DNA of 5,652 bases, taken from IMG/VR virus record IMGVR_UViG_2531839668_000014, positions 1 through 5,652 of that record; one strand, written 5' to 3'. Under the pieces are notes generated by a model. It was not told the DNA's origin. It did no database searches and worked only from the letters and a program-made list of their open reading frames with translations. The translations under genes and the position numbers were made by a program. Each line of letters begins with the position of its first letter. The stretch's first letter is position 1. Positions 1 to 5,652 of the stretch are shown one piece after another. Source of the stretch: a virus (taxonomy: Duplodnaviria; Heunggongvirae; Uroviricota; Caudoviricetes).

Positions 1-112
1 AACTGAAGTTGCCCTGAAAATGAAATTTTTTTGCACAACCGCAGAACTTTTCCGCAGGGCATCAGTCTTAATTAGTGCCACTGCTTTTCTTTGATGTCCC
101 CATTTTGTGGAG

Positions 113-155
113 CCCATCAACCCCGCCATTTCGGTTCAAGGTTGATGGGTTTTTT
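113..155 (+). terminator. Rho-independent terminator: 10-bp perfect stem CCCATCAACC (113-122) / GGTTGATGGG (140-149), 17-nt loop, then TTTTTT (150-155)
   Basis: Read directly from the sequence. The T-run follows the hairpin only on the plus strand; on the minus strand the hairpin is followed by CTCCACAAAATGG, which is not U-rich. It therefore most likely terminates a plus-strand gene lying to the left of the window, not ogr. Confidence 0.55.
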
Positions 156-235
156 GTTGCCTGAAATTTAAGCTGTTTAAAATCATGATGTTAGAAGCAC
201 TATTCTTTAACGATGGCGACAAAATGGCGGCAGCG

Positions 236-454
236 TCAAAGAGAGAGCGCCACCTGTCCTGATTTCATTGGATGCGGCTGAACCGGATTTGACTCTTTTG
301 GCGTTGCAATCGAACGAACAAAAGTTTCATGGGTAACAAAAGTATGGCTGCAGTTAATGTTCTGGCACTGGTTGTAACGCTCTTTGGTCAATGAAGATAC
401 CTGAAAACTGCTGCGAGTATGGGCGGCACTTCCACACAGTGGGCAAATCATCAT
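236..454 (-). CDS. ogr: Ogr/Delta-family zinc-finger late-gene transcriptional activator (P2 Ogr-like), 72 aa from ATG 454
   Basis: The translation MMICPLCGSAAHTRSS...KERYNQCQNINCSHTF...VQPHP carries the C-x2-C ... C-x4-C zinc-finger spacing and the KERY(H/N)QCQN(V/I)NC motif of P2 Ogr / 186 B / P4 Delta. The ORF track starts at GTG 487 (83 aa), but ATG 454 is preceded by GGGGAGAG 8 nt upstream and gives the canonical 72-aa length. It lies downstream of D, as in P2. Confidence 0.85.
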   Translation of the reverse strand: MMICPLCGSAAHTRSSFQVSSLTKERYNQCQNINCSHTFVTHETFVRSIATPKESNPVQPHPMKSGQVALSL

Positions 455-491
455 TTTTCGAGCTCTCCCCATTTTTGCTAAATTCACAATA

Positions 492-519
492 ATGATACCG
501 CATTATTCCATTTTGAAAA
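492..519 (-). promoter_or_regulatory. Candidate sigma70 promoter for ogr (-35 TTTTCA at 519-514, 16-nt spacer, -10 TATCAT at 497-492)
   Basis: Hexamers read on the minus strand in the D-ogr intergenic region. The -35 is weak, so this is a sequence-only guess. Confidence 0.25.
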
Positions 520-544
520 CTTAAAAGTTTTCCATTGCGAAGAA

Positions 545-1645
545 TCATTCCATTTCGAAATCATCAATCCTCACTTCAAGCTCCAGACTGGTCGTAAAAC
601 CGTTATCCGGGCTGACATTATGCGTCAGGGTGGTAATGGTCCATTCCGCATCATCTATTGGCTGTTTAAAGCCACTGACTTTCACTGGCATTTCCGTGTA
701 GAGATCTGCCCGACCTTCCGCCAGTTGTAGCGAGAATGACGCAACACCGCGTTGCAGGCGTTCCCACTGCATTTTCGCCGCACGTTCGGCGTTGCTCCGG
801 TTGGCATAAGTGCGATTAAGTACCAGCACGTTTTCATCCGTACCCACCAGGTAATCGCCCTGCTTCGCTTCCGGCTCTTTCTTCTGCTTTGCAGTCCTGC
901 GCTTACGCTTCACCGTGGTGCTTTCTTTCTTCGCGGGTTCGCGGGTATGCAACCAGCTGGCAATTACGCCCGTGTAGGCTCCGCGATCTGCCAGGGTAAA
1001 GCGGTGACTGTCGCCGTCCTTACGTGTGATAGTGATAACCGGTAATGGTTTACCACTGGCGCTTTTACCCTGCCCCTGCCGGATGAATAACAGATTGCCA
1101 TTTTTCACCGACGCAATAGCACCGTACTGGCGCGCCAGCCGCATCAGAAAACTGCCGTCACTCTCATTAGTCTGGTCTATATGCTCCACGGGTTTATCCG
1201 ACAGGTCCTCACCCAGTGCCATCTTCAGTTTGTGCCGCGCAGCTATTTCCTTCACCACTTCCCCAACGGTGGTCTTGTGCCACGATTTTTCACGGCGGGT
1301 ATTCAGCGTTTCACGAAAATCAGCACTTCGCGCCCGGATAGTCAGGCGGTCCGGTGCGCCAGTGTGTTCAATCTCGTCCACCGTGAATGCCCCTTTCGGG
1401 AAAAGCGGCTGCCCCTTCCAGCCCAGCGCCAGCGTAATGACCGCACCACGGCGCGGCAGCGCTATTTTTCCATCGGCGTCGTCCAGCTCCAGATCAAGCT
1501 GGTCCGCTTCAAAGCCCCGGTTATCCGTCAGCGTCAGCCTCATCAGGCGGTTATCCAGCACAGTGGTGATATCCCTGCCCTCAATACTGATGCTGAATGC
1601 GGGAGTTTTGTTGCCTTTGTTAAGCAGTTCAGAGCTGAAATTCAC
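545..1645 (-). CDS. D: P2 gpD-like tail protein (late control gene D family), 366 aa
   Basis: The translation contains blocks I recall from P2 gpD (LTLTDNRGFEADQLD, TIRARSADFR, GAYTGV, a lysine/arginine-rich linker, VKVSGFK, GFTTSLELEVR). It starts at GTG 1645, which overlaps the TGA stop of the upstream gene (GTGA), with GGGAGGG 9 nt upstream. The length is close to full-length P2 D. Confidence 0.9.
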   Translation of the reverse strand: MNFSSELLNKGNKTPAFSISIEGRDITTVLDNRLMRLTLTDNRGFEADQLDLELDDADGKIALPRRGAVITLALGWKGQPLFPKGAFTVDEIEHTGAPDRLTIRARSADFRETLNTRREKSWHKTTVGEVVKEIAARHKLKMALGEDLSDKPVEHIDQTNESDGSFLMRLARQYGAIASVKNGNLLFIRQGQGKSASGKPLPVITITRKDGDSHRFTLADRGAYTGVIASWLHTREPAKKESTTVKRKRRTAKQKKEPEAKQGDYLVGTDENVLVLNRTYANRSNAERAAKMQWERLQRGVASFSLQLAEGRADLYTEMPVKVSGFKQPIDDAEWTITTLTHNVSPDNGFTTSLELEVRIDDFEME

Positions 1646-2127
1646 GACAGCAGCCCTCCCACCGTTTTACTGATATCACTTAAGGCAGATGTTGCCGTGT
1701 CCTGCAGATTATTCAGTTGCGTACTGAGATCACCGAACATATCGGACAAGGATTCATCCACCCGTTTGAGCGACAGGGTGAACTCAATCCGGCGCGGCAT
1801 ACCGTCGCGGAAAAACTCCGTTTTAGTCAGATTCAGTCCCTCAATCACATACATGCCGTAAATCGTGCCGCTGCCTTCAATCAGGGGCCATGCTTTTCCC
1901 TGTTCTGCCATCTGCTCCAGAGCCAGCAACGACAGCCTGCCGCCCGTTATCTCCGGCATAAGAACTCCAGAAAGCGTCAGCATGTCGTTGTCCGGTCCCA
2001 GAAACTGCGTGGACGGACGACGGTTTACCCGGCTGTTTGCCGCATGTCGCCAGCTGCGTTGATACTGCAGTTCCTGATACGGAACGGTGCGCAGCATAAA
2101 CACGTACAATCCCAGCACCATCATCAT
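1642..2127 (-). CDS. U: P2 gpU-like tail protein, 161 aa
   Basis: Its size and position between tape measure and D match P2 gpU. The ATG start at 2127 overlaps the stop of the upstream ORF (ATGA). Confidence 0.85.
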   Translation of the reverse strand: MMMVLGLYVFMLRTVPYQELQYQRSWRHAANSRVNRRPSTQFLGPDNDMLTLSGVLMPEITGGRLSLLALEQMAEQGKAWPLIEGSGTIYGMYVIEGLNLTKTEFFRDGMPRRIEFTLSLKRVDESLSDMFGDLSTQLNNLQDTATSALSDISKTVGGLLS

Positions 2128-3404
2128 GCGTCGTATCCCCCCTGATCGCTGTAGTTACTCCTGGCTTTTGCCTTCAGCCTGCGTTCACGTTCATCAAGCT
2201 GGCGTGCCACCTCCCGCGCAATATCCTGCGCACTTTGTCCTGGCTGCGTCTGGATGATGATCTGCGTCGGTGCCTCAATCCGGTAAACGGGCGGCACAGT
2301 GGCTGCGCGACTCACCATCGCTTCACCGCCTTTCGCGGGAAGCGCCACAGGATGCAACGGTGGAAGCTCTGCTGGCGCGGCAGCAACGCCCATCATTCCG
2401 GCAACAACGGCAGCTAGTGCAGCTGTATTTCTCCGGCTGGTCACATTTGCCGGGCCGTTAACAATTTCCGGCCCGTTTTCACCGACGATGCCAAACTGCC
2501 CGCGCGGGATATAGCCGCCGCTGTCATACATCCCCGCAAAGCCATATCCCCATGACGGAAAACCACCCGATGGCATCATCACTTTACCGTCTGCATTCAC
2601 CGTCGCAGGTTGCTGACGCGTCACGCTTTCCGGCAGTTTCGCCTTTGCAGCCTCTTTACTGACAATGCCGAGTTTCTCCAGCAACCAGGAAACGCCGGAT
2701 TTCAGGGAGTCCAGCGGATGCATGACCATATTCAGCCCTTCCGCCAGTGCCTCCCCGAATCGTCGCCCCATTGCCGCTGCACTCTGCAGTTCGGCAGAGG
2801 TCGACTTAACGGGCGTCAGCAGATCAGTAAACCAGCCCCACAGCGCCTGTACTTTGTCGCCAATCCACTGAAACACAGGCTTAAGTGGTTCGAATGCAGC
2901 ACTGATGGGACCTGCCGCCGCTTTGAATCCTTCCACCACGCCGCCGAGAAATGCGGTGATGGGTTGCCAGTATTTCCAGACAACCAGCGCCACGCCCGCC
3001 AGTGCAGTAACCACAAGACCTATCGGACTGAGCAGAGCACCTAACAGACCAGATAACAGGGCTTTCATGCCTGTTTTTTTACCTTCAGCAGTCACTGCGC
3101 CGATGATATTGGTCGTGGTTTCTTCTTCCGTTTCACCCTGCGGCACACGCACAACAACGGTCACGGGTTTTGCCTGGTCAGCGATGGCATCCAGCGAACG
3201 GGCCAGCGTGCCGGACTCACCCGCTTTACCGCTGGCAGTCAGCACATCAGTGATCAGCACGGGTTTATTAAGAGGAAACATTTTTGCATCGGCATCATCG
3301 CCCGTGCAGACCATACCCACGATGGCGGTGCTCACCGTGGTAATGGATCGGGTGCCTTCGTTGATTTCAACAACGCGCACCCCGTGGTGGTAATCCTGAG
3401 CCAT
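2124..3404 (-). CDS. In-frame fusion ORF (426 aa): N-terminal ~115 aa of tail sheath (P2 FI-like) joined to C-terminal ~310 aa of tail tape-measure protein (P2 T-like)
   Basis: The N-terminus MAQDYHHGVRVVEINEGTRSITTVSTAIVGMVCT...FPLNKPVLIT...KPVTVV matches the P2 sheath N-terminus (MSDYHHGVQVLEINEGTR...) as I recall it. After about residue 117 (...GMKALL) the sequence becomes hydrophobic and Gly/Ala-rich, like a tape-measure C-terminal region, and the ORF ends translationally coupled to gpU. A strong RBS (AGGAGG, 9 nt) precedes ATG 3404. At 426 aa it is too short for either a sheath plus tube or an intact tape measure. Confidence 0.75.
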   Translation of the reverse strand: MAQDYHHGVRVVEINEGTRSITTVSTAIVGMVCTGDDADAKMFPLNKPVLITDVLTASGKAGESGTLARSLDAIADQAKPVTVVVRVPQGETEEETTTNIIGAVTAEGKKTGMKALLSGLLGALLSPIGLVVTALAGVALVVWKYWQPITAFLGGVVEGFKAAAGPISAAFEPLKPVFQWIGDKVQALWGWFTDLLTPVKSTSAELQSAAAMGRRFGEALAEGLNMVMHPLDSLKSGVSWLLEKLGIVSKEAAKAKLPESVTRQQPATVNADGKVMMPSGGFPSWGYGFAGMYDSGGYIPRGQFGIVGENGPEIVNGPANVTSRRNTAALAAVVAGMMGVAAAPAELPPLHPVALPAKGGEAMVSRAATVPPVYRIEAPTQIIIQTQPGQSAQDIAREVARQLDERERRLKAKARSNYSDQGGYDA

Positions 3405-3480
3405 AGCGGCGAACCTCCTGATTGGATTAGGCTTCGCCCTATGTTGAAGTGATTGTGCCCGACAAACAGCTAAGTGTAGT

Positions 3481-3498
3481 TGTACAGTTATTCACACA
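3481..3498 (-). promoter_or_regulatory. TGT-N12-ACA dyad, candidate Ogr/Delta binding site of a P2-type late promoter driving the sheath-fusion/U/D operon
   Basis: TGTACAGTTATTCACACA at 3481-3498 lies 78-95 bp upstream of the sheath-type ATG at 3404. P2/186/P4 late promoters carry a TGT-N12-ACA element centred near -55. The -10 hexamer is not confidently assigned (CACAAT at 3457-3452 on the minus strand is one option). Confidence 0.45.
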
Positions 3499-3546
3499 AA
3501 ATGACGGTATTTGTCTACTTGCAGGGATAATCAAAATTATGCTGAT

Positions 3547-4113
3547 TCAGGGGGATTCACTGCTCTTATTTGCCGGAAATTTTCTATAAATGGTAGAAAC
3601 GCCCACATCAAAAATCAGTGCAATACGCTGTCTTGATTCTCCGGCCTCTAGTAAACGTCCAATCTGTGCCCACTGTTCGGTGGTCAACTTAGGACGGCGT
3701 CCACCTACTCTGCCTTTGTCGCGAGCTGCAGCAATCCCCGCTCTGGTACGTTCAACTATCAGTTCGCGTTCCATTTCAGCCAGGGCACCCATGACATGAA
3801 AAAAGAAACGGCCCATTGGGGTACTGGTATCAATACTGTCAGTCAGGCTTCGGAAATTCACGCCACGCTGGCGCAACTCTTCTATCAGCGTAACAAGATG
3901 CCGCATACTGCGTCCCAACCTGTCCAGCTTCCAGACAACCAGCGTGTCTCCTGCCGATAGTGTCCTGAGTAGTTTTTTCAGCCCCGGTCTGTCGGACTTA
4001 GTGCCACTGATTTTGTCCTCAAAAATCCGCTCACATCCCGCGCAGTTCAGTGCATTACGTTGCAAATCGGTGTTCTGGTCATTTGTTGACACGCGTACAT
4101 AGCCAATAAGCAT
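3547..4113 (-). CDS. Serine DNA invertase, Gin/Pin/Cin/Hin family, 188 aa from ATG 4113
   Basis: From the third codon the translation reads MLIGYVRVSTNDQNTDLQRNAL...GDTLVVWKLDRLGRSM...PMGRFFFHVMGALAEMERELI...GRRPKL, near-identical in its motifs to Gin/Pin, including the catalytic serine in VRVSTNDQ and a C-terminal HTH. The ORF track starts at ATG 4119, but the SD AGGGGG is better spaced for ATG 4113, which gives the canonical MLIGY N-terminus. Confidence 0.9.
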   Translation of the reverse strand: MLIGYVRVSTNDQNTDLQRNALNCAGCERIFEDKISGTKSDRPGLKKLLRTLSAGDTLVVWKLDRLGRSMRHLVTLIEELRQRGVNFRSLTDSIDTSTPMGRFFFHVMGALAEMERELIVERTRAGIAAARDKGRVGGRRPKLTTEQWAQIGRLLEAGESRQRIALIFDVGVSTIYRKFPANKSSESP

Positions 4114-4140
4114 GATCATCCCCCTGAATAAAAACCGGAG

Positions 4141-4674
4141 ATGATGCCAGTTAGCTGTTACCTCTGCATTTTCTTAAACGTTGGTTTGGGAGAAGGCTCA
4201 GCATTACCTGTTGGGGTGCCTGTTCCGTGGCCTTCAGCCACTCCGCCAACAGGCTGGTTGAAATGCAATGGTGCGGCTTTTTCTGCTGAAGAATACCCGG
4301 AACTGGCAAAGGCTTACCCGACAAATAAATTGCCTGATTTACGCGGTGAGTTTATTCGTGGCTGGGATGACGGACGTGGAGTGGATAACGGAAGGGGATT
4401 ATTAACGCTTCAGGACGGTGCGATTGTCAGTCATAACCACTATTGGGGAATCTGGACTTCACGAACTAACGACCAGACTCTGGAAAGTTTTACAGGCACC
4501 ACGATTTTAAAACAAATCACGCCCCTGTCTCCGGCCATTGACTTCGATAATTACCCAATTCCCAACCCGGCTATTACAGAGGGTGGTGTTGTTGCGGCAA
4601 CGACTAAACCTGCAGGTGCGAATGAAACACGCCCACGAAATGTCGCTTTTAACTATATTGTGAGGGCTGCATAA
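4141..4674 (+). CDS. Tail-fibre C-terminal variable (receptor-binding) cassette, Mu S / P1 S / P2 H C-terminus-like; silent alternate cassette in this orientation
   Basis: It contains PVGVPVPWPS...GW...G..F...YP.L...YP...LPDLRGEFIRGW and ends NVAFNYIVRAA, matching the Mu S C-terminal ending (NIAFNYIVRLA) as I recall it. The frame is open across the crossover site. The ATG at 4141 has GGAG immediately adjacent with no spacer, so independent initiation is unlikely; the functional extent is probably about 4195-4674. Confidence 0.7.
   Translation: MMPVSCYLCIFLNVGLGEGSALPVGVPVPWPSATPPTGWLKCNGAAFSAEEYPELAKAYPTNKLPDLRGEFIRGWDDGRGVDNGRGLLTLQDGAIVSHNHYWGIWTSRTNDQTLESFTGTTILKQITPLSPAIDFDNYPIPNPAITEGGVVAATTKPAGANETRPRNVAFNYIVRAA
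4169..4194. other. gix/cix/hix-like 26-bp invertase crossover site (TTTTCTTAAACG-TT-GGTTTGGGAGAA), left boundary of the invertible segment
   Basis: On the bottom strand this reads TTCTCCCAAACC-AA-CGTTTAAGAAAA. One half-site matches the recalled TTATCCAAAACC half-site at 10 of 12 positions, with the inner AAACC/GGTTT-type palindrome and a 2-bp core. It sits between the invertase start and the fibre C-terminal cassette, just upstream of the conserved LPVGVPVPWPS start of the variable fibre domain, as in the Mu G segment. Confidence 0.5.
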
Positions 4675-5276
4675 TGAATAACGCAGAATTAAACAGTGAA
4701 TTAATTGCCACTATGGCAGGAGAAATTACTGTTTATAACTTTGATGTCATGAGTCGGGAATATATTTCAGCTTCAACTGAATATCTTGCTATTGGTGTCG
4801 GCATTCCGGCATATTCCTGTTTAGATGCCCCAGGCGCATACAAAGCTGGTTATGCAATCTGCCGATCTGCAGATTTTAACTCATGGGAATATGTGCCAGA
4901 CCATCGCGGTGAAATCGTCTTTAGCACCGAAACAGGAGAATCAAAAGAAATCACAGCTCCGGGTGATTACCCTGATAATACAACCACTATCGCCCCGTTA
5001 ACGCCATACGATAAATGGGATGGTGAGAAATGGGTGACAGATACTGAGGCACAGCATAATGCCGCAGTAGACGCGGCAGAAGCACTGCGCCAGTCACTTA
5101 TTGATGCAGCAATGGCTTCCATTAGTCTGATTCAACTGAAACTACAGGCCGGACGGAAGCTGACGCAGGCAGAAACCACCCGACTTAACGCTGTGCTGGA
5201 TTACATTGACGCGGTGACGGCAACAGATACCAGCACCGCGCCGGATGTCATCTGGCCTGAACTGCCGGAGGCGTAG
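4674..5276 (+). CDS. Tail fibre assembly chaperone (Tfa; Mu U / P2 G / lambda Tfa family), alternate cassette, 200 aa
   Basis: The start overlaps the upstream stop (TAATG), with GAGGG 6-7 nt upstream. The C-terminal motif RLNAVLDYIDAV...APDVIWPELP is typical of Tfa chaperones, and the gene is positioned directly after the fibre C-terminal cassette. Confidence 0.8.
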   Translation: MNNAELNSELIATMAGEITVYNFDVMSREYISASTEYLAIGVGIPAYSCLDAPGAYKAGYAICRSADFNSWEYVPDHRGEIVFSTETGESKEITAPGDYPDNTTTIAPLTPYDKWDGEKWVTDTEAQHNAAVDAAEALRQSLIDAAMASISLIQLKLQAGRKLTQAETTRLNAVLDYIDAVTATDTSTAPDVIWPELPEA

Positions 5277-5652
5277 GCCATTCAATATCTGGCGCACTGG
5301 AGGAATCAACCAGTTCCAGTGCGTCCAGATAATCCAGCCACAAATTATATTGCGCCAGTTCATCATCTTTCAGACGACCAATAGCGGCTTTACCGGGCCA
5401 TTGCTTACTGTTCATGTATTCGTTGGCCTGGTTAATTAGTAGCTGTCTTTCTGATTCAGTAATTTCAATAAGTTCTTCATGCGTGGGTGGAGGAATATCT
5501 GCCCACGCAGGCAGCCCATCATCTCCGGCAATACGGATTTTTCCTTGTGGCGGTTCAGCCATAAACTCACTGATAATATTTTGATTTACTTCCTTAGCGT
5601 CTGATAAATCCCATCCCTCTGATTTATATTTATCAATCATATCCACAGGGAA
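5248..5652 (-). CDS. Tail fibre assembly chaperone (Tfa), opposite orientation and probably the currently expressed copy; 5' end at or beyond the window edge
   Basis: The C-terminal motif QYNLWLDYLDAL...SAPDIEWPTPP parallels the plus-strand Tfa. The frame remains open to the window end (the ORF track starts at GTG 5646; an ATG lies at 5640), so the true start is uncertain. Confidence 0.7.
   Translation of the reverse strand, partial: FPVDMIDKYKSEGWDLSDAKEVNQNIISEFMAEPPQGKIRIAGDDGLPAWADIPPPTHEELIEITESERQLLINQANEYMNSKQWPGKAAIGRLKDDELAQYNLWLDYLDALELVDSSSAPDIEWPTPPAVQAR

Follow-up and report, generated by a model that had tools for sequence, protein, structure and literature searches.

Here, we propose with high confidence that the 426-aa open reading frame (ORF) at positions 2124-3404 of IMG/VR record IMGVR_UViG_2531839668_000014 (the whole 5,652-nt stretch analysed, positions 1 to 5,652, is called the window below) is a deletion scar in a defective P2-like prophage (Elveevirus-type, Peduoviridae) adjoining ybjL in Escherichia coli 3.2303, in which the start of the tail sheath gene FI runs directly into the end of the tape-measure gene T. 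Taken by itself, the fusion is an ordinary object, a deletion-derived chimeric gene resolved to the nucleotide, and it documents the loss of tail genes by one prophage for which both parents, the exact joint and the set of lost genes are all known. What is new beyond the fusion is that its breakpoints appear to belong to a recurrent, so far unexplained set of deletion sites.

Parents and junction of the fusion

The protein begins MAQDYHHGVRVVEINEGTR, and its residues 4-118 align with residues 3-123 of the P2 sheath protein gpFI (BLASTP, 64% identity, E 2e-46), the match ending at residue 118; its N-terminus also matches residues 3-120 of the pyocin R2 sheath PA0622 (PDB 3j9q, E 3.7e-11). Colinearity with these two sheaths extends over the first 118 residues and includes the N-terminal arm. 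The only Pfam domain found in the fusion is PF22671 (Gp18_domIII_N, residues 27-87), whereas the sheath of an intact relative carries PF22671, PF04984 (residues 108-273) and PF17482 (residues 275-377); unlike gpFI and PA0622, the fusion is without the latter two, which make up the sheath body and the handshake-strand acceptors, and it cannot polymerise as a sheath. Among PHROG families, the tail sheath family phrog_23 covers residues 1-119 and a tape-measure profile covers residues ~97 to 426; PHROG also includes a family of sheath N-terminal fragments of ~118 residues.

The remainder of the protein belongs to the tape measure. Residues 121-268 align with residues 591-736 of P2 gpT (45% identity, E 2e-39), and from residue 117 to its end at 426 the protein shows 98-99% identity with the final 310 residues of the 1025-aa T found in Elveevirus-type phages, the last 309 residues of the fusion being colinear with T to the stop. 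In a tblastn search of 50,697 phage records, the last 284 residues were 98-99% identical to the ends of tape-measure genes, and no record spanned 80% of the fusion in one place. Unlike a complete tape measure of this type, the fusion is without residues 1-716, including PF10145 (residues 246-457 of intact T, with no match in the fusion), and without the upstream E/E' genes, and it cannot set tail length; in intact tape-measure systems these are chaperone genes with a programmed frameshift. An NCBIfam scan of the fusion gave no match, and every full-length match found is itself a sheath-tape-measure deletion fusion, with its joint at the same junction or within a few dozen codons of it. Residues 118-160 consist of 16% Gly, 12% Ala, 19% Leu and 16% Val, the Kyte-Doolittle profile (19-residue window) peaks at 2.4, centred at residues 122-137, and hydrophobic helix-like stretches lie at residues ~113-146 and ~327-347. 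The preliminary description, made from the letters and the ORF list, had read the protein in the same way, as a P2-like sheath N-terminus changing near residue 117 (nt ~3040-3060) to a hydrophobic Gly/Ala/Leu-rich tape-measure C-terminus; the change is found at codons 117-119 (nt 3050-3055), and both halves and the composition agree. As a separate observation, many phages and prophages of Klebsiella pneumoniae (Kp48xx series, 4LV2017, KP12) match the last 284 residues of the E. coli tape measure at 98-99% identity; this tail module crosses genus boundaries.

Comparison with intact phages locates the junction. Against Cartapus (blastn), the invertase gene and the 5' side of the sheath gene correspond to locus positions 1806-2951 (97.1% identity), and the 3' end of T through ogr to locus positions 6924-9633 (93.9% identity); the two matches are colinear and share six bases of the window, and in the phage they are 3,978 bp apart. 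The closest intact relative, a prophage that E. coli 31B19CPO012 carries at this ybjL site too (99.1% and 97.0% identity), has, like Cartapus, TATCTG at both endpoints, in sheath codons 117-119 and tape-measure codons 716-718. In the comparison with this prophage, the sheath parent reads GCCCTGT TATCTG CCCAG, the T parent TATGCCA TATCTG GTCTG and the window GCCCTGT TATCTG GTCTG. The missing block is contiguous and a multiple of three (the length of 1,326 codons), and in intact relatives it contains sheath codons 119-390, FII, E, E' and T codons 1-716, so that the Pfam domains lost are PF04984 and PF17482 (sheath), Phage_tube, the TAC_7 chaperone and PF10145 (T). Neither an ORF nor homology for FII, E or E' was found within the window (ORF list; blastn against Cartapus).

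With its flanks contiguous with two separate places in an intact relative and one copy of the repeat kept, the joint has, as read from the sequence, the pattern of a microhomology-mediated deletion. As the sequence comparison shows, illegitimate recombination between the two TATCTG copies removed the 3,978 bp, including the C-terminal two thirds of the sheath, and the reading frame was preserved by chance. No mobile element or recombinase site was found at the junction. The earlier proposal that an in-frame deletion took the sheath C-terminus, the tail tube, the E/E' chaperones and the tape-measure N-terminus is borne out by the comparisons with Cartapus and with the 31B19CPO012 prophage; that it was a single deletion stands as far as one contiguous block is gone and is the simplest reading, with a two-step route (discussed below) as a rival.

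Several points weigh against this account. A microhomology of 6 bp is weak, and the intact region has 709 exact direct repeats of at least 8 nt; with so many longer repeats available, microhomology alone does not account for the choice of this pair of sites. In addition, the deletion in E. coli 3.2303 is known from assembled sequence alone, and the prophage is visible only up to the end of the contig, which falls inside the invertible tail-fibre segment.

A much longer repeat is present in the window itself. The 16-nt exact direct repeat CGCTGGTTGTCTGGAA occurs at 2974-2989 and 3929-3944 (minus strand), 955 nt apart, where zero such repeats are expected by chance; one copy lies in the retained part of T and the other in the invertase gene, and both encode LVVWK in the same frame. 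A further in-frame deletion between the two copies would take out the sheath fragment together with the promoter.

Break sites in the tape-measure gene

The T endpoint of the fusion is shared with many other joints. Endpoints cluster at T601, T670, T717, T721 and T727 (numbers are codons of T; Cartapus positions 19988-20001, 19851 and ~19645). When the 120 best protein matches were compared with the Cartapus proteome (BLASTP), T was seen to start at residues 710-721 behind many N-terminal partners, namely gpA (at three positions), CII, gpJ, gpW, gpV, gpL, the invertase, the tail fibre (H), four positions in the sheath, internal T and unidentified frames. T codons 717-721 have more than 20 different partners, and a second cluster of protein-level joins lies at T670.

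Because protein searches show open frames only and favour relatives of the query, DNA-anchored samples from IMG/VR were added. With a 35-mer just right of T721 as the anchor, seven of 120 contigs had their joint inside a span of 14 nt, no two of them with the same left partner; that is, ~6% of the sampled prophage-derived contigs that keep the flanking T sequence are joined within these 14 nt. A sample anchored in gpU gave seven breakpoints spread over 930 nt to the right, none of them recurrent, and a left-side 30-mer anchor gave no breakpoint at the hot site among 120 contigs. Pooled, 26 breakpoints were mapped over 2,532 nt, and 7 of them lie within 14 nt, against 0.14 expected (P about 2e-10). 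One complete genome retains the left side: there T1-721 runs into the end of D, and TA is once more the point of joining. The sheath endpoint is reused as well: the site CTGTTA/TCTG (the slash marks the break) is joined to five T sites, T318, T670, T717, T721 and T727, the join to T318 being out of frame in the complete genome OY754392.

Most joints at the hot site come straight after a TA that the two parents share. In a set of 23 sites, G stands at position -4 in 17 and at +4 in 16, and C at +2 in 13; these sites are not independent, and any base consensus drawn from them is tentative. Non-recurrent joints show ordinary microhomologies, for example TGGC, GTCATG and CAACG. The fusion thus resembles the products of short-homology illegitimate recombination in E. 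coli in that one copy of a short direct repeat is left at the joint, and differs from them in that usage falls on far fewer sites than would be predicted from repeat length and in that most partners at the hot site share TA only. These comparisons place the window junction at a recurrent, sharply localised deletion hot spot of this phage group, and both endpoints of the fusion would belong to a small set of break sites used repeatedly in Elveevirus-type phages. A literature search for a described hot spot returned nothing relevant. Also near this position, in the IMG/VR locus L161, T diverges upstream of codon ~722 and is almost the same downstream of it, which marks a mosaic boundary a few codons from the hot spot.

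What might produce such a hot spot? One option, which we put forward as a rather doubtful conjecture, is a DNA-breaking or strand-exchanging activity of host or phage that prefers a few GNTA/ sites in the T and sheath genes of Elveevirus-type prophages (T601, T670, T717, T721, T727 and FI118) and "grounds" these prophages through repeated loss of their tail genes. Under such an activity, the window fusion may be one product of a previously undescribed route of prophage inactivation. If specific breakage or joining rather than chance were at work, this would offer a testable mechanism by which bacteria disarm prophages while keeping some of their genes, and would account for the database families of truncated "sheath" and "tape measure" ORFs with misleading names such as "tolA" and "CII family". 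As a matter of record, chimeras with the T C-terminus (P0002-P0120) carry the source names "tolA", "phage regulatory CII family protein", "replication endonuclease", "baseplate assembly protein V" and "head completion protein", each of which describes just one part of the chimera.

Other candidate causes were tried and rejected. Deletion by the DNA invertase does not fit: the local site is TTTTCTTAAACG-TT-GGTTTGGGAGAA, with core TT, the junction parents AAAGCCCTGTTATCTGCC and GCCATATCTGGTCTG are unlike it, and some junction-bearing prophages have no invertase gene beside the fusion. RecBCD resection limited by Chi was dismissed because GCTGGTGG is absent from both strands of the window and of the complete Cartapus genome, and a hairpin or quasi-palindrome at the T site because no notable inverted repeat was found (fold z-score -1.5). 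Quinolone-poisoned gyrase has a reported preference for scission before G (PMC6379681), and the base at +1 varies among the sites (T, C, A or G). A pseudo-origin for the phage A nickase is contradicted by the P2 nick site, GCGCCTCG/GAGTCC, which is unlike the hot site, and by left endpoints at three different positions in gene A. CRISPR self-targeting was pursued with a 75-nt search of 5,426 complete genomes, and among the 60 matches listed all lie in tape-measure genes and none in a CRISPR spacer, which is weak evidence against it. The type III restriction enzyme EcoP1I recognises AGACC, and a cut 25-27 bp from the downstream GGTCT would fall 4-6 nt from T721; this misfits T717 and T670. Repeat length, or strength of microhomology, fails on the abundance of longer repeats given above.

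Origins of the junction and decay of its carriers

From the haplotypes and the breakpoint spectrum, we infer that the same junction very probably arose more than once. An alignment of eleven junction-bearing loci resolved five haplotypes among those of the 426-aa form and another, the sixth, in the 422-aa form, the five differing from one another within 14-59 nt of the junction on its left side and within 20-107 nt on its right. Differences from the window fall at known phage polymorphisms hard by the joint, at +335 in L016, at +314, +317 and +320 in L017, and at +281, +290, +374 and +377 in L014; upstream, L014 has an acyltransferase gene and an unrelated promoter region. The flanks in L016 match those of a single intact phage contig (L177) with 2 mismatches in 349 nt and 0 in 500 nt, and for the remaining haplotypes the flanks are matched by intact phages other than this one. 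One pair behaves differently. The window and the L008 group (haplotypes A and B) are identical from -148 to +445 relative to the ATG and then ~3% different, which points to a junction shared by descent and later recombination on the right side.

The identical 600-nt tract across the junction in haplotypes A and B, with the common descent of this pair, counts against repeated origin, and one old deletion combined with patchy recombination with incoming P2-like phages could also yield several haplotypes. In its full form, this alternative, which we consider possible though not favoured, holds that the FI118-T717 deletion occurred once in a prophage at the ybjL site and that flanks and upstream regions (invertase, acyltransferase and gpR-adjacent types) were swapped later by homologous recombination with such phages, for example in tandem lysogens. 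It draws on the single chromosomal site shared by all loci examined, on the clear recombination signature that the window and haplotype B present, and on the high mosaicism of P2-like phages, with boundaries at Cartapus 18385 and at ~T722. It has difficulty, however, with haplotypes C to F, in which standing polymorphisms come as near to the junction as 14-29 nt on the left and 20-56 nt on the right, so that in each of them the ends of the exchange would have to be pressed against the junction on both sides, and with L016, which matches one intact phage nearly perfectly on both sides. Moreover, both sites are used independently with other partners, which shows that they are intrinsically break-prone.

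Less probable again, and in our view unlikely, is a two-step route, in which sheath codon 118 was first joined to T codon ~670 through a TTATC microhomology, giving the 472-aa form, and 138 nt were then lost between the S-G-L-coding repeats TATCCGGT and TATCTGGT, giving the 426-aa form; a third loss of 12 nt (CTGTTA..CTGTTA) would give the 422-aa form. The 472-, 426- and 422-aa forms do all exist with one left endpoint, and there are parallel series, CII to T670, T717 and T721, J111 to T670 and T717, and FI165 to T670 and T721. Each form, however, can just as well have come from joining the left site directly to one of the three hot T sites, joins at T721 also occur with partners that share just TA and have no repeat for a 12-nt slippage, and the 472-aa form (L018) is on a single contig, against ~82 for the 426-aa form.

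The 426-aa form comprises 18 protein variants on those ~82 contigs (NCBI and SRA-derived assemblies in a large protein collection). Besides the 472-aa form there are a 422-aa form on 13 contigs and forms of 415 and 470 aa; all are from E. coli and often bear the source name "tolA". The junction itself was found in none of 5,426 complete E. coli genomes and in none of the GTDB representative genomes. Eight protein variants were looked up, five of them of 426 aa, and all eight are at ybjL, each with additional, different deletions: gpO is fused to an invertase remnant (L008-L013), methylase to tail fibre (L014), gpR stands beside the sheath promoter (L016), gpD is truncated or missing (L017, L019 and L020), and CII stands beside the invertase (L021). 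The fusion-bearing ybjL loci are prophages at various stages of decay. In this they are like other cryptic and defective E. coli prophages that decay by deletion: the right end (here T', U, D and ogr) stays at the attachment site, internal genes go and, in the relatives, more is lost stepwise. The defective P2 remnant of K-12, for instance, has ogrK and a fragment of gpD. The window deletion differs from theirs in being in frame, in leaving an expressible chimeric gene and in having breakpoints that recur across independent prophages.

Some of these loci also carry cargo. A reverse-transcriptase (RVT_1) gene of 586-626 aa stands in the cargo position upstream of the portal gene in L008-L012, and other prophages at the ybjL site have KAP NTPase, SNIPE/T5orf172, AAA_15 or HIRAN genes beside the integrase or portal gene. 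All of these are typical variable defence cargo of P2-like phages.

Expression, product and genetic neighbourhood

The expression signals of the sheath gene have been left in place. The 140 nt upstream of the fusion ATG are nearly identical to those of intact phages, with 97% identity for the upstream region, the AGGAGG ribosome-binding site is retained at 3419-3414, and the fusion stop overlaps the gpU start in ATGA at 2127-2124, so that, as in the P2 FETUD operon, the fusion gene is followed by gpU and gpD. The ogr gene, gpD, the gpU coupling and the late-promoter region are all intact. This is in keeping with the strong ribosome-binding site, the coupling to gpU and the expressible operon noted in the preliminary description. 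The centre of the annotated activator site of P2 pF lies 83 nt upstream of FI, and the TGT-N12-ACA dyad of the window (Table 1) is centred ~86 nt upstream of the ATG. This position with respect to the ATG is the sole argument for the dyad as a putative Ogr activator site: the pattern occurs once in the window where 1.6 occurrences are expected by chance, which is not significant alone, and the upstream region has diverged too far from P2 pF for an informative alignment. P2 late promoters require Ogr or a satellite activator. The fusion would accordingly be made only once Ogr, or the activator of a satellite or superinfecting phage, turns on late transcription, and, with Ogr-dependent late promoters, it would be silent in a quiescent lysogen.

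In light of its two parents, what might the role of the product be? In the P2 structure, gpFI contributes residues 7-10 and 374-382 to the handshake sheet between subunits, the hub is gpD and the tube initiator gpU, and the tape measure's C-terminal part, with candidate membrane helices, is modelled at the spike protein's C-terminal end (preprint 10.64898/2026.09.14.750843). By homology, the fusion keeps one donor strand for the sheath handshake and, from the tape measure, the hydrophobic end that is proximal to the spike, two parts that would sit on opposite sides of the tube wall in a virion. Since everything needed for building a sheath or measuring a tail is gone, tail assembly from this prophage is impossible, and the chaperones that normally handle T (E/E') are deleted. 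Most likely the fusion has no function and is a remnant.

It is very improbable that the fusion has been retained as a functional product, whether as a dominant-negative poison of the tails of P2-like phages or as a membrane protein useful to the host, although this would explain the persistence of in-frame copies in many strains. The intact frame, promoter region, ribosome-binding site and translational coupling are what such a product would have, the retained part of T contacts the spike and hub and has candidate membrane helices, and in-frame fusions are common among relatives. Their abundance, however, is an ascertainment effect of a protein search, which finds in-frame ORFs only, and the DNA-anchored samples join the same T endpoint to antisense and out-of-frame partners. 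PADLOC defence-system models gave no match for the fusion, gpU or gpD, nor did NCBIfam for the fusion. D and further genes continue to be lost from related loci, the sequence variants follow polymorphism already standing in the phages, and the complete E. coli genomes searched are without the junction. The earlier suggestion that the product interferes with the tails of a superinfecting phage is conceivable, and it may do so, but this is pure speculation.

An assembly or sequencing artefact in a draft genome is barely credible: the contig (AFAE02000017.1) does stop 2 bases past the window and the exact protein is on record from that one contig only (EII76423.1, "phage tail sheath-like protein", E. 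coli 3.2303), but an assembler cannot be misled by an overlap of 6 bp, dozens of independent NCBI and SRA-derived assemblies have this junction too, on contigs of up to 479 kb, and analogous TA-type junctions occur in complete genomes (L003, L191).

The genes of the window are in the order ogr-D-U-T'-FI'-invertase-tail fibre segment (Table 1), a P2-type late-gene block on the minus strand bordering a host gene.

Table 1. Features of the window, with positions counted from its first letter
Feature	Position	Strand	Remarks
ogr late-gene activator	236..454	-	72 aa counted from ATG; last prophage gene before ybjL; ORF list and Pfam
gpD (baseplate hub)	545..1645	-	366 aa; ORF list and Pfam
gpU (tube initiator)	1642..2127	-	161 aa; start overlaps fusion stop; ORF list and Pfam
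Chimeric ORF gpFI(1-118)::gpT(717-1025), very likely a deletion scar	2124..3404	-	426 aa; EII76423.1
Tape-measure-derived segment	2124..3049	-	last ~309 codons of T and stop
Deletion junction, 6-bp microhomology TATCTG	3050..3055	-	single copy here, at both endpoints in intact relatives
Sheath-derived segment, codons 1 to ~117	3056..3404	-	with N-terminal strand; without subtilisin-like and C-terminal sheath domains
Shine-Dalgarno AGGAGG	3414..3419	-	9 nt upstream of ATG; same as in intact sheath genes
TGT-N12-ACA dyad	3481..3498	-	centre ~86 nt upstream of ATG
Gin/Pin-family DNA invertase	3547..4113	-	188 aa; upstream of fusion, as in intact relatives
Collar-domain fragment (invertible tail-fibre segment)	4141-4674		177-aa ORF
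cix/gix-like crossover site TTTTCTTAAACGTTGGTTTGGGAGAAG	4169..4195	+	of invertible tail-fibre segment; Cartapus homology ends here
Tail-fibre assembly genes	4674-5276 and 5248-5646		inside invertible segment

At one end, the window and the contig break off inside the invertible tail-fibre segment (4141-5652), probably owing to inverted repeats, and the 177-aa Collar-domain ORF begins shortly before the crossover site and is thus an unfused alternative C-terminus of the fibre. At the other end, the host DNA directly beyond the window (L005 5655-7339) holds ybjL, a gene of the aspartate:alanine antiporter family that encodes 561 aa in other strains and is split into two ORFs of 468 and 92 aa in E. 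coli 3.2303. The gene is also split, into 468 and 111 aa, in SRR30408873 (L010), which points to a frameshift or sequencing error common to related strains.

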